DNA of 64,000 bases from Candidatus Blackburnbacteria bacterium RIFCSPHIGHO2_12_FULL_44_25 (GCA_001816455.1 MHCB01000038.1:7965-71964), one strand, 5' to 3'; positions 36,968 through 50,058 are shown, counted from the first letter of the stretch. The notes: a model not told the origin generated them from the sequence alone. A program made the numbers and translations.

Positions 36968-37240
36968 TTACCCCTCGTAGTCGGGGTTTTCTTCCTCTTC
37001 CTCGGGTTGTTCGAGATCTTCAAGTCTTTCGACCCCGGGTTCGCGCGCTAGACCTTCGTTTTCTACTTCCTCGTCCGGGCCGATTCGACGGTTTCTCTCG
37101 GCGTCGTTGACCATGTCGGAGGGAGTCCTGACTTCCCCAGGAATTGGCTCTTCGCCGGTAAAGTCTTTTACCATCTCCCCCACATCGTCATCGAAGGCCG
37201 GGTCGGTTGCTGGATCTTCTGGAGGATCCTTCTTGTTTTG
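36968..37240 (-). CDS. small acidic protein
   Basis: About 90 aa, D/E/P-rich (…EEPIPGEVRTPSDMVNDAERNRRIGPDEEVENEGLAREPGVERLEDLEQPEEEEENPDYEG). The internal start was chosen because the long ORF overlaps the next gene. Confidence 0.35.
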   Translation of the reverse strand, partial: QNKKDPPEDPATDPAFDDDVGEMVKDFTGEEPIPGEVRTPSDMVNDAERNRRIGPDEEVENEGLAREPGVERLEDLEQPEEEEENPDYEG

Positions 37241-37316
37241 CATGTCGGGAAGATCTCTTGCCACGCCCTTATTGTAACAGATGTATGCTGTTTTTTGGAG
37301 TGGTTTTTGGGGTAGA

Positions 37317-38111
37317 ATGAATTTAGTGTTCATTCTCCTCGAAAAATTCAAGTATTGGGTTGCTTTTAATCTTTTAACACTCGGGAGACGGACTCGCCTT
37401 TTAATTGTGGCGTCTCTTTTTTTATGTTCCTTTTTGGGTGTTGTCTTTTTGGCTTGGACCCGGGGATATTTTGATCCATATGTTGCTGCGGAGAACATAA
37501 CTTTATCGAATGTAACGGATAAGAGCGTCACTATTTCATGGAAAACCGTAAAGCCTGCGCGCGGACGGGTTGTTGTTAGCAATAAGGGTTTTTATCCGTG
37601 GGATCAGAAGATTAGGGTTAGGAAGGATGACCTTTTGGAGCTTGCGGACATGAATACGCAACTTGATACGCACCATATTACGGTTTCCGGTTTGCTGGCA
37701 GACCACACGTATGGTGTTAAGGTTTATAACGGTTGGTGGAGCTCCAAGACTTACAAGTTTACTACTCGACCGGAGATTCAAAATTTACCCAATCCCCATC
37801 CATCCTACGGGAGAATTGTCGATAGCGAGCGGAAAAAAGGAATTCCTGGAGTATTGGTTTATATGGTAATAAGTCGGGAGGGGCACACCGCTACTCTTTC
37901 GACTATTGCGGATTCTCAAGGCAAGTGGGCTATAGATGTAGCAAATATCAGAGATATTCAAGGACAAAGTTTTGATTTGTCTGATCCTAGAGTTGGGATT
38001 GAGATTTTAGTCGAGGGAGGAAGAAGAGGCAGAGTAAAGGCCACACTCAACAGTAAACAATTGAGTCCTGCTCCGGATATTGTATTTAGGGTTACAAAGG
38101 AGGGTACATGA
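37317..38111 (+). CDS. membrane-anchored FN3-like domain protein (paralog of 48779-49984)
   Basis: N-terminal TM and an FN3/purple-acid-phosphatase-N-like domain (…ITLSNVTDKSVTISWKT…HHITVSGLLADHTYGVKVY…). The stop overlaps the start of the giant gene (ATGA). Confidence 0.6.
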   Translation: MNLVFILLEKFKYWVAFNLLTLGRRTRLLIVASLFLCSFLGVVFLAWTRGYFDPYVAAENITLSNVTDKSVTISWKTVKPARGRVVVSNKGFYPWDQKIRVRKDDLLELADMNTQLDTHHITVSGLLADHTYGVKVYNGWWSSKTYKFTTRPEIQNLPNPHPSYGRIVDSERKKGIPGVLVYMVISREGHTATLSTIADSQGKWAIDVANIRDIQGQSFDLSDPRVGIEILVEGGRRGRVKATLNSKQLSPAPDIVFRVTKEGT

Positions 38112-48778: not shown

Positions 48779-49984
48779 ATGAACAAGAGAAAAGTAATTA
48801 CGATATTGTCAACTGTTTTGTTGCTAGTTGCTTTGCCTGTTAGCGTTTTTCTGGTTGGTAAACAACAAAATCTCTTCTTGAAAGCTTCGCCGGAGGAAGT
48901 TCCTAAAGAAATTAAGATAGCAAATATCTCAGACAACTCTTTTTCTGTTTCCTGGATTACGGGAAAGTCTGTAATCGGTTTTCTTGTATACGGGAAATCT
49001 GAGGGGTTGGGGTTTACTGCTTCTGACGATCGAGATACGGCGTCGAAAGTTTCGCGGACAACGCACCACATTACTGTTAAAAATTTGGAACCTGGAACCC
49101 GCTACTTTTTTAAGATGGGATCCGGAGGCAGTGCATATGACAATAGTGGAACTTCGTATGTTGTCACAACTGCTCCGACAACAAATGATCCTCCTCCTCT
49201 TGCGGACCCAGCGTATGGTAAGGTTTTGGGGGCAACGGGGGGGTCTTTGGCTGATGCTTTGGTGTATTTGACTTTAGAGGGAGGAACTCCTCTTTCTACT
49301 TACACGCGGGAGGCTGGAAATTGGCTTATTACTTTGAATAACGCAAGAACTGCTGATTTGTCCCGGTTTATTAAATACTCTGGGACTGGTGTGCGTATGT
49401 CTATATATGTTCAAGCAGCAGACAAAGGGATTGCCCAGGCTTCTGCTGATACGCAAAACGATAGTCCTGTTCCTAATATAAAGATAGGTCAAAATCTTGC
49501 TTTTGCTGCGGTTGGGGTGACACCGACTGTACTTCCTACTCCAACAGGCTCTCTGAAAGCCTCTGAGTTTAGCTTGCAAGAGGTGGAACCTGCAACTAAA
49601 TCTGCTGTTGCCCTGGAGGTCCTTGCTCCCAATAAGGATGAAAAGTTGCCCTCTACCAGGCCTACGTTTTCCGGAACTGGAAAACCCGGAGAGGTTATTA
49701 CGATTACTATTCACAGCGCGCAAGTTATTACTGCCCAAGTGACTGCTGGTTCGGATGGTCAGTGGAGCTACACTCCCAACCAGGACCTGTCACCCGGGCA
49801 GCATAGTGTGACTATTGCGCAAGGGGGCAGTTCTGACAGCCAGCAGTTCGTCGTTTTAGGTGCGAAGACGACCACGGCTTCTGCGTCTTCTTTGCCTGTT
49901 AGCGGTGCGGTTAGTAATTTATTGTACTTTGTACTAGTTGGTGTGTTCTTGCTTGTTGGGGGAATAGTTTTTGCTTTGGTGTAG
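48779..49984 (+). CDS. FN3-like domain surface protein with a C-terminal LPxSG-like sorting signal and TM
   Basis: N-terminal signal/TM, an FN3-like domain homologous to the one in 37317-38111, and a C-terminal …SSLPVSGAVSNLLYFVLVGVFLLVGGIVFALV. Confidence 0.6.
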   Translation: MNKRKVITILSTVLLLVALPVSVFLVGKQQNLFLKASPEEVPKEIKIANISDNSFSVSWITGKSVIGFLVYGKSEGLGFTASDDRDTASKVSRTTHHITVKNLEPGTRYFFKMGSGGSAYDNSGTSYVVTTAPTTNDPPPLADPAYGKVLGATGGSLADALVYLTLEGGTPLSTYTREAGNWLITLNNARTADLSRFIKYSGTGVRMSIYVQAADKGIAQASADTQNDSPVPNIKIGQNLAFAAVGVTPTVLPTPTGSLKASEFSLQEVEPATKSAVALEVLAPNKDEKLPSTRPTFSGTGKPGEVITITIHSAQVITAQVTAGSDGQWSYTPNQDLSPGQHSVTIAQGGSSDSQQFVVLGAKTTTASASSLPVSGAVSNLLYFVLVGVFLLVGGIVFALV

Positions 49985-49986
49985 TG

Positions 49987-50058
49987 CGCTCCCACCAGGA
50001 ATCGAACCTGGAATTACTCCTTAGAAGGGAGTTGGTATATCCGTTTACCTATGGGAGC
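49987..50058 (-). tRNA. tRNA-Arg(TCT)
   Basis: GCTCCCA-TA-GGTA-AACGGATA-TACC-A-ACTCC-CTTCTAA-GGAGT-AATT-CCAGGTTCGATTCCTGG-TGGGAGC-G. No CCA. Confidence 0.75.

Follow-up and report, generated by a model that had tools for sequence, protein, structure and literature searches.

A three-gene cassette in the genome of Candidatus Blackburnbacteria bacterium RIFCSPHIGHO2_12_FULL_44_25 encodes a protein of 3553 residues, here called the giant, between two proteins of a fibronectin type III (FN3) family. The genes lie in a stretch of 64,000 nucleotides (GCA_001816455.1, MHCB01000038.1:7965-71964), the whole of which was analysed and is referred to as the window; all coordinates are counted from its first letter. 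[quoted passage not shown] The cassette is probably host-directed surface machinery, and we assign a probability of roughly 0.5 to the reading, drawn from sequence and genomic context, that the giant itself is docked at the cell surface and directed at a host. CPR epibionts depend on large surface proteins, and it has long been asked by what means epibionts among the CPR/Patescibacteria manipulate their hosts; to our knowledge, almost none of their effectors are known. NCBI and UniRef give Candidatus Blackburnbacteria, a CPR lineage, as the source of the protein, in agreement with the original prediction, which was made from the DNA sequence alone and had likened the giant to surface or effector proteins of episymbiotic CPR bacteria.

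Organization of the cassette and integrity of the giant gene

The cassette is encoded on the plus strand between genes for tRNA-His(gtg) and tRNA-Arg(tct), both on the minus strand (36859-36935 and 49986-50058, respectively). An open reading frame (ORF) listing, ARAGORN, and Rfam (RF00005; 67.5 bits for tRNA-His) agree on this layout, which had been described as three co-directional, coupled genes. The first gene (37317-38111) encodes an FN3-family membrane protein of 264 residues, or 276 residues if translation begins at an alternative ATG at 37281; each of the two starts has been called in some other assemblies. The giant gene (38108-48769) is preceded by the Shine-Dalgarno sequence AAGGAGG, and its ATG overlaps the TGA of the upstream gene in the ATGA at 38108-38111, exactly where a stop/start overlap had been predicted. 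The gene for the downstream FN3-family protein (48779-49984; 401 residues) starts 9 nt past the stop codon of the giant.

The 3553-residue ORF is a genuine gene. Its DNA is identical over the full 10.6 kb in five public Candidatus Blackburnbacteria assemblies (JGI 3300025317; ENA ERZ4903137, ERZ27254756, and ERZ27254754; and NCBI GCA_001816425.1), whose samples are possibly not independent, and the protein is recorded as hypothetical or as a 'J domain-containing protein' (NCBI OGY10250.1/OGY11231.1; UniRef A0A1G1V7H1). The population recurs in 0.1-µm filtrates of Rifle-type groundwater. The 90% cluster of the protein, with a representative (P0002) that covers residues 543-3553, contains at least four further full-length variants of 3553 residues and >99% identity, beyond which the next homologue has ~33% identity. 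A chance origin of the open frame is untenable, because 3553 stop-free codons would arise with a probability of ~(61/64)^3553, or ~e^-170. Splitting of the ORF on resequencing had been named in advance as a point that would speak against a giant protein. The gene is intact and identical in the five assemblies; certain ENA assemblies carry the giant at >99% identity but annotated as two or more pieces, interrupted around residues ~590 and ~1013-1028 (P0004/P0010, P0008/P0009, P0006/P0012, and P0007/P0013; seen at the protein level only). These split calls could reflect assembly error or strain-level frameshifts. They are also what favors an artefact (an ORF fused by chimerism or by a frameshift, or a pseudogene in decay), an explanation that is extremely improbable in view of the identical DNA, the additional full-length variants, the length of the open frame, and a single 3098-residue ORF on an unrelated 469-kb contig that has the same N- and C-terminal ends.

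Conservation of the cassette and its C-terminal module

The two flanking genes are conserved partners of the large gene, as had been proposed. The order of a short FN3 protein, a large protein, and a second FN3 protein is present in at least six CPR genomes: the window, the 469-kb contig (L030), and four others (L006, L007, L008, and L014), of which two are further Blackburnbacteria, one is assigned to the 'Microgenomates group', and one to Daviesbacteria. In these four, the large protein in the middle has 1036-1531 residues and no Pfam match, and the genes are joined by 4-nt overlaps or small gaps. Further cassettes occur in metagenome contigs (L035, L036, and L038-L040). The 3098-residue homologue on L030 (P0134) has the N-terminal ectodomain, PP2C phosphatase domain, and C-terminal module of the giant, and its gene lies between FN3 genes whose stops and starts overlap; no J-domain and no gluzincin module are present in it. 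Fic and GNAT domains occur in other giants of the family. The C-terminal module is the constant element of the cassette, and the payload differs between relatives. Motifs resembling those of ADP-ribosyltransferases in the L006 middle protein had neither a precomputed Pfam match nor a PDB match, and no such activity is claimed for it.

The cassette-defining C-terminal module covers residues 3209-3553 (47732-48766, plus strand). A beta-sandwich region is joined there by a single EF-hand-like loop, DxNxNGxxxxxE, at residues 3347-3358 and by a pair of ~90-residue repeats, here termed GWN repeats, with the pattern GWN...W..(Y/F)V...G.DF.(L/I)..G.GY, starting at residues 3384 and 3475. The calcium-binding DxNGNG repeats of the original prediction did not survive closer inspection: the C-terminal part contains a single DxNxNG motif (residue 3347), the actual repeats are the two GWN units, and the expected SdrD-B/Cna-B repeats were not recovered, with residues 3080-3553 giving no Pfam match at E values up to 5. 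The last ~345 residues are the only part of the giant that is homologous to the middle proteins of L006, L007, L008, and L014 (30% to 33% identity; E = 1e-38 to 1e-44). No structure in the PDB resembled an AlphaFold2 model of the module (predicted local distance difference test, pLDDT, 73), and no PDB sequence was found to be related to it; no viral contigs encoding it were found.

The C-terminal module is fused to an FN3 module in P0099, L017, L019, L024, L041, and L050, and Dojkabacteria, Anaerolineae, one deltaproteobacterium, and a number of metagenome contigs have GWN and FN3 modules side by side or joined in a single exported polypeptide. Neighboring or fused genes are a classic genomic sign of a physical or functional link. 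Since the C-terminal module is the only region common to all middle proteins, and since GWN and FN3 modules are neighbors or fusion partners across phyla, the conserved synteny and the gene fusions suggest that the module docks on the FN3 proteins. Their association in exported proteins fits a surface protein with its own anchoring partners.

Flanking FN3-family proteins

The two flanking proteins are paralogous, as predicted (29% identity over 242 residues; E = 9e-15). The upstream protein has an N-terminal transmembrane (TM) anchor with an approximate insertion free energy (dG) of -3.3 and RRTR on its cytoplasmic side, followed by an FN3/Pur_ac_phosph_N-like domain and a CarboxypepD_reg-like beta domain (PF16656, E = 3.7e-6; fn3, E = 3.5e-4), and proteins in the orthologous position are present in L006, L007, L008, L014, and L030. 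In the downstream protein, an N-terminal signal or anchor is followed by FN3/Pur_ac_phosph_N-like, CarboxypepD_reg-like, and Big_13 Ig-like domains, an LPVSG motif, and a C-terminal TM segment (Big_13, E = 1.2e-11; PF16656, E = 1.3e-10). The anchors had been predicted as N-terminal in the upstream protein and C-terminal (LPVSG plus TM) in the downstream protein; both are present, but the downstream protein also has the N-terminal anchor or signal. Because of the basic residues before the anchor, the Big_13 Ig-like domain, the sortase-like signals, and the dockerin-like tails described below, the ectodomains of the FN3 family most likely face outward.

Homologues of the downstream protein number 66, most of them from Blackburnbacteria and other Microgenomates. 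Long forms keep a [LIV]P[VQA][SA]G motif plus TM segment, many with basic tails, and thereby resemble sortase substrates; the window protein has LPVSG plus TM and ends in ...FALV, without a basic tail. Among the ~30 window ORFs scanned, no sortase domain was identified. Many short forms end in a dockerin-like calcium loop, D(L/V)NGDGV(V/I)N.(F/I)D (P0052-P0072, of which P0057 has PF00404; L030 19290-20099; L014 11428-12156). Such tails are absent from the proteins of the window, and no cohesin to pair with them was detected in Pfam scans. The dockerin-like loop and the sortase-like signal look like two alternative modes of anchoring or assembly within the FN3 family.

Distant FN3 homologues (458-583 residues) follow genes for MurJ, PilN, PilO, and a 150-170-residue ORF in four CPR contigs (L010 8495-11377; L011 8249-21752; L033 8171-11566; and L034 8160-11632). 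In L011, the gene after the FN3 protein encodes a giant of 5114 residues with FHA and Fic domains. This arrangement suggests that the FN3 family began as an envelope component associated with type IV pili. No pil genes were found beside the cassette in the window, L006, L007, L008, or L030. In cultivated Saccharibacteria, association with the host is driven by type IV pili (PMC9894109, PMC11623550).

Signal peptide, ectodomain, and helical rods of the giant

The presence of a signal peptide in the giant was borne out. Residues 1-34 (...TPVRA/SQ; 38108-38209, plus strand) include a hydropathy peak at residues 1-31, have a marginal dG of +2.9 that is typical of cleavable signals, and match the family-typical motif NxI..LYP.....A(Q/S), which is also found in P0101, P0102, P0106, and the middle proteins of L006, L007, and L014. 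More broadly, two conserved types of N-terminal signal can be distinguished among giants, middle proteins, and FN3 proteins. Type 1, with the cleavable-looking pattern NLI..(L/F)YP.L.YAQ, occurs in the window giant and the proteins just listed. Type 2 is an anchor ending in G(V/I)(Y/F)L(V/A)..Q......(A/S)(S/A) and occurs in FN3 proteins, P0103, P0104, P0115, and the L011 giant. Found in FN3 proteins as well as in some giants, this anchor-type N-terminus may serve as a sorting signal specific to the lineage.

The signal peptide is followed by the expected P/E/Q-rich linker, identified by its acidic composition (residues ~45-135; 38240-38512, plus strand); the first 200 residues of the giant contain 37 Pro and 23 Glu and have a net charge of -27. 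Comparable acidic linkers are present in the middle proteins of L006 and L008. The conserved N-terminal ectodomain (residues 137-1081; 38516-41350, plus strand) has 33% identity over 1014 residues to P0134 (E = 2e-136), and a segment scan assigned it to no Pfam family. It includes the three Cys-rich GCCxD...NGAC modules that had been noticed in the sequence (residues 366-500; 39203-39607, plus strand), with GCC at residues 368, 417, and 455. The giant has 40 Cys up to residue ~730 and only two later, at ~2434 and ~2453, and the ectodomain Cys residues line up between the giant and P0134. That all but two Cys lie in the N-terminal ectodomain is consistent with export.

An Ala/Gly-rich hydrophobic segment at residues 1037-1061 (41216-41290, plus strand) has a Kyte-Doolittle value of 1.71 and an approximate dG of +4.5 kcal/mol. 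On this approximate scale, values are about -3 for the FN3 anchors and +4.5 or higher for the internal segments of the giant. Given this high dG and the Glu and Pro in the equivalent segment of P0134, residues 1037-1061 are unlikely to form a TM helix, and hydropathy and approximate dG predicted no membrane-inserting segment inside the giant. The giant is predicted to be exported because its signal motif is conserved in the family, because no internal TM segment is credible, and because a relative, P0101, combines a signal peptide, a gluzincin module, and the C-terminal module without any TM-like segment.

Two helical rods are predicted in the central part, the A/E/R/Q-rich rod 1 at residues ~1450-1670 (42455-43117) and rod 2 at residues 1744-1950 (43337-43957), both on the plus strand. 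Stretches free of Pro and Gly (~1450-1680 and 1744-1850) lie on either side of the J-domain, which agrees with the long A/E/R/Q coiled coil of the original prediction, but a heptad pattern is confined to part of it. In rod 1 the periodicity is strong at residues 1576-1660 and absent at residues 1471-1575, which resemble a single charged helix (single-alpha-helix-like); in rod 2 it is strong at residues 1744-1850 (z up to 12.9). A BLAST self-comparison of the giant revealed no internal repeats.

Predicted catalytic domains of the payload

The J-domain (residues 1676-1740; 43133-43327, plus strand), recognized as canonical from the start, contains HPD at residues 1706-1708 (KKWHPD) and matches PF00226 at residues 1678-1733 with 58.9 bits (cut-off 27.8). 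J-domains of DnaJ in the PDB match the giant at E values down to 1e-8. The giant as a whole is not a canonical DnaJ: TIGR02349 reaches 55.4 bits (cut-off 377), with an alignment to model positions 1-98 only, and the G/F region, Zn-finger, and C-terminal client-binding domain of DnaJ are not present in the giant. NCBIfam models of TopJ also match the J-domain, over ~55 residues with 34.6 bits (cut-off 300).

The PP2C/SpoIIE-like phosphatase domain (residues ~2005-2225; 44120-44782, plus strand) is a borderline case by hidden Markov model (HMM). Scanned in isolation, residues 1950-2260 give 28.4 bits with PF13672 (PP2C_2; cut-off 24) and E = 0.006 with SpoIIE, whereas no PF13672 match is reported for the whole protein. 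NCBIfam Stp1 matches with E = 2e-4 and 21 bits (cut-off 230). The metal-binding Asp motifs are present (GQDAF, VADG, YGDS, ASDG, and GDDVT) and are conserved in P0134, and the homologues P0124 and P0133 match SpoIIE/PP2C. PstP of M. tuberculosis (PDB) aligns at GDS and SDG with a non-significant E value of 0.3. The weak match above threshold in the isolated segment and the Asp motifs are consistent with the PP2C-type core that had been proposed. A linker region with two ~80-residue alpha/beta units (~2260-2518; 44885-45661, plus strand) follows, which includes the Cys pair 2434/2453, is partly conserved in P0134, and belongs to no Pfam family.

The giant has one HExxH motif, as originally noted, at residue 2861. 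It lies in a module of ~580 residues (2519-3105; 45662-47422, plus strand) with an N-terminal beta subdomain and an all-alpha body, and H2861, E2862, H2865, E2896, and Y2926 are invariant in 25 sequences; the conservation of E2896 suggests that it is the third zinc ligand. The predicted fold is thermolysin/gluzincin-like. A match to a described peptidase family had been expected; neither the segment nor 8 homologues have a Pfam match, and a PDB profile search found nothing. The module is therefore best described as a gluzincin-like zinc hydrolase by motif and predicted fold, not by family. It has no sequence similarity detectable with Pfam or the PDB to the M1, M4 (thermolysin), M30, M36, and M61 gluzincins, from which it also differs in its N-terminal beta domain and C-terminal helical bundle, and inspection of the consensus showed that the GxMEN motif of M1 is missing.

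An exhaustive HMMER search with residues 1990-3189 yielded 38 proteins, mostly aligning to ~2519-3105. About two dozen of these relatives are stand-alone proteins of ~600 residues with hydrophilic N-termini and without signal peptides, one of them encoded between a gene for an RseP-like M50 protease and DHH/YqeY/YbeY genes. The remaining relatives are giants of 1629-4616 residues, in which the module comes after PP2C (P0103 and P0106) or after FHA (P0115). This stand-alone or embedded HExxH...E...Y family (P0105-P0129; L031 1354-3201 and L032 712-2559) is apparently undescribed. HExxH regions in the middle proteins of L007 and L008 were rejected as homologues of the module (hhalign probability 0.3%).

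Proposed function of the giant

In the reading that we prefer, Sec would export the giant via the cleavable signal peptide, the disulfide-rich N-terminal ectodomain and acidic Pro-rich spacer would be extracellular, and the C-terminal module of ~345 residues would bind both co-translated membrane proteins of the FN3/CarboxypepD_reg-like type and thereby keep the giant on the cell surface. The variable payload between the conserved ends would comprise the two rods around the J-domain, PP2C, and the gluzincin-like module. The rods may project these enzymes away from the producer, so that the payload would act on or in the cell to which the epibiont attaches. An exported location combined with domains that need cytoplasmic partners (J and PP2C here; FHA, Fic, and GNAT in relatives) points to action on or in an attached host. 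Since the payload activities make sense only near Hsp70 and ATP, phosphoproteins, and peptide substrates, a host-directed purpose appears the most likely one. The payload also looks active, with its catalytic signatures intact (HPD; the PP2C Asp motifs; HExxH, E, and Y).

The original prediction had suggested a surface-displayed or host-delivered effector. Its surface part is in keeping with the CPR origin, the conserved FN3 partners, and the signal peptide without a convincing internal TM segment; true delivery of the J/PP2C payload into the host cytoplasm is unlikely. Several observations weigh against a docked, host-directed giant. J-domain, PP2C, and FHA are classic cytoplasmic domains, and the stand-alone homologues of the gluzincin module and PP2C, which lack signal peptides and are encoded among housekeeping genes, belong to ordinary types of cytoplasmic enzyme. 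Neither a translocation device nor an autoprocessing protease nor a receptor-binding domain of any known type was recognized. The J-domain was found in this one lineage and in no other cassette member, and it may be a recent, possibly non-functional acquisition. Binding of the C-terminal module to the FN3 proteins is suggested by genomic association only, the dG values come from a simple Hessa-type insertion scale and not from a trained predictor, and the split gene calls count on the same side.

The cytoplasmic character of these domains would also suit an envelope-spanning scaffold, with the N-terminus and C-terminal module outside and the central ~2000 residues in the producer's cytoplasm, where they would recruit its own DnaK and act in its own Ser/Thr phospho-signaling, like DjlA or Mycoplasma TopJ. 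Consistent with this arrangement, the stand-alone homologues lack signal peptides, the order of PP2C or FHA followed by gluzincin recurs in P0103, P0106, and P0115, and both the giant and P0134 have a hydrophobic segment, Ala/Gly-rich in the giant, at corresponding positions past the Cys-rich region, with the giant almost devoid of Cys beyond it. Weakly hydrophobic internal segments are also present in P0102-P0106, and the TopJ models match the J-domain. We nevertheless consider such a scaffold, the main rival reading, rather unlikely: the segment has an unfavorable approximate dG and contains Glu and Pro in P0134, a second membrane pass would be needed before the C-terminal module, where there is no hydrophobic segment, P0101 places the gluzincin module between signal peptide and C-terminal module without a TM-like segment, and the TopJ and DnaJ matches are confined to the J-domain. 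TopJ and DjlA resemble the giant in having a J-domain, set in an architecture unlike that of DnaJ and accompanied by acidic Pro-rich or coiled regions, that localizes Hsp70 activity to an envelope structure, but their J-domain is cytoplasmic and they lack the combination of a signal peptide and Cys-rich ectodomain. If the center of the giant were cytoplasmic, Hsp70 and phospho-signaling would be brought to a surface structure by an unusual scaffold spanning the envelope, which would be new for CPR cell biology.

Alternatively, the giant could be a structural adhesin or fibril, in which the enzyme-like domains are non-catalytic binding or spacer modules or the gluzincin alone works outside the cell on host surface proteins. 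The long helical rods, the acidic Pro-rich spacer, and the Cys-rich ectodomain would fit this role, as would payloads that vary greatly among cassette members on a constant anchoring end, and giant attachment proteins are a known theme in CPR bacteria (PMC8080830; bioRxiv 10.1101/2023.11.21.568195). However, the HPD motif, the PP2C Asp motifs (also in P0134), and the HExxH/E/Y residues (in the 25 sequences) are retained, and Pfam scans detected no adhesin repeat families in the giant, which makes a purely structural role improbable.

A more far-reaching version of the host-directed reading, which we judge unlikely, is that the cassette represents an unrecognized contact-dependent CPR delivery system, with an FN3 platform, a GWN-mounted giant, and a payload that enters a host bacterium on contact. 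The FN3 paralogues would then derive from an envelope protein whose gene normally comes directly after PilN-PilO, and the J/PP2C/gluzincin payload inside the host would commandeer DnaK and erase Ser/Thr phosphorylation. If true, this would be the first J-domain effector between prokaryotes.

Comparison with known systems

HopI1 of Pseudomonas syringae is a type III secretion system (T3SS) effector with a C-terminal J-domain that includes HPD and with a P/Q-rich region, and it is thought to hijack host Hsp70. Like HopI1, the giant is predicted to leave its producer and has a J-domain with HPD plus a P/Q-rich region. HopI1 is small, T3SS-delivered, and targets Hsp70 of plant chloroplasts, whereas the giant is a 3553-residue Sec-type protein of a monoderm-like CPR bacterium without a known injection device and with a presumed prokaryotic host; the sequence relationship between the two is limited to the J-domain. 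The hijacking of host Hsp70 has been reviewed as a theme (PMC8150971, PMC6802931). MARTX and other multi-effector or polymorphic toxins share with the giant a very large size, export, conserved ends, and a varying array of intracellular-type enzymes. However, no RTX/Gly-rich repeats, cysteine protease domain, or Rhs/YD, LXG, or contact-dependent inhibition (CDI) modules were detected in the giant, and it differs from polymorphic toxins in its internal variable part, conserved C-terminus, FN3 membrane partners, and lack of an immunity gene.

Giant surface proteins have been described in Vampirococcus (PMC8080830), and Ser/Thr phosphatase and dockerin domains have been noted in some giants (PMC8080830; bioRxiv 10.1101/2023.11.21.568195). 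Compared by description only, the giants of such ultra-small epibionts or predators (Vampirococcus and Omnitrophota) are likewise multi-kiloresidue membrane or surface proteins with an assumed role in host contact; the reports describe adhesion-type domains and no FN3-giant-FN3 cassette, GWN module, J-domain, or gluzincin-like module. In Southlakia epibionticum, the one CPR bacterium amenable to genetics, the adjacent FN3 and VCBS proteins SEML1_0890 and SEML1_0891 and the dockerin protein SEML1_0315 are essential for epibiotic growth (PMC10633639). Again by description only, an FN3 protein beside a large surface protein, together with dockerin-type proteins, is reminiscent of the cassette, but Southlakia belongs to another phylum (Saccharibacteria) and no J/PP2C payload has been reported for it.

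No paper was found that describes the cassette, the GWN module, or the family of gluzincin-like proteins, and the statement that no characterized system has this combination of domains is in accord with the literature. Two of the components, the GWN C-terminal module and the gluzincin-like family, thus appear to be undescribed. Cultivable relatives can be searched for the conserved three-gene cassette; the locus also offers a putative docking module whose fold has no solved counterpart and a ~600-residue zinc-hydrolase family found as stand-alone proteins and embedded in several giants. If the J-domain acts on host DnaK, a new principle of interbacterial parasitism would be at hand.

Genomic surroundings

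The position between two tRNA genes raised the possibility of a polymorphic-toxin-like interbacterial weapon on a mobile island. The variable central region, the Fic and GNAT domains in other giants of the family, and a nearby AbiEii/RHH toxin-antitoxin pair would be compatible with such a weapon. The pair lies ~4-5 kb downstream and is of type IV, with an RHH_1 protein (53766-54056, minus strand) and an AbiEii nucleotidyltransferase toxin (54957-55622, plus strand). However, a variable center with a conserved C-terminus is the reverse of the arrangement in Rhs, CDI, and LXG toxins, the adjacent gene encodes an FN3 partner and not an immunity-like protein, and the cassette is surrounded by housekeeping genes in other genomes. 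Further, there are no flanking direct repeats around the tRNA genes, no integrase among the ~30 window ORFs scanned, no clear GC break at the cassette, and no viral relatives; the tRNA bracket therefore has no island signature, an integrated island was rejected, and the toxin explanation is very unlikely. A phage or defense origin was likewise rejected: PADLOC gave no match, PHROGs matched only the J-domain and an Ig-like stretch, and viral relatives were lacking.

Between tRNA-His and the first gene of the cassette, a divergently oriented, highly acidic ORF of 91 residues (36968-37243, minus strand) is called as a gene in five assemblies; a Pfam scan gave no match, and it is probably not part of the cassette. 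Just past tRNA-Arg are an ORF of 122 residues without Pfam match (50100-50468, minus strand) and a gene for a 493-residue protein with weak similarity to PMT_2/ArnT-like glycosyltransferases (50531-52012, minus strand), which could glycosylate surface proteins. Neither is found beside the cassette in other genomes.

Elsewhere in the window, the GC content is 0.50-0.53 at 22000-30000 and 4000-6000, compared with 0.43-0.46 in most of its length. The 22-30 kb stretch includes ORFs without Pfam match (25165-26280, 26483-27139, and 27340-27966). At 29691-33338, a 458-residue protein whose only recognized domain is a C-terminal Trans_reg_C (OmpR-type winged helix) is encoded beside an opposite-strand ORF of 755 residues without Pfam match, and both are kept in other assemblies. 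Outside the window, a solitary FN3 homologue on a 55-kb CPR-like contig lies beside a Cas12a (Cpf1)-Cas4-Cas1-Cas2 locus (L009 2816-8394).

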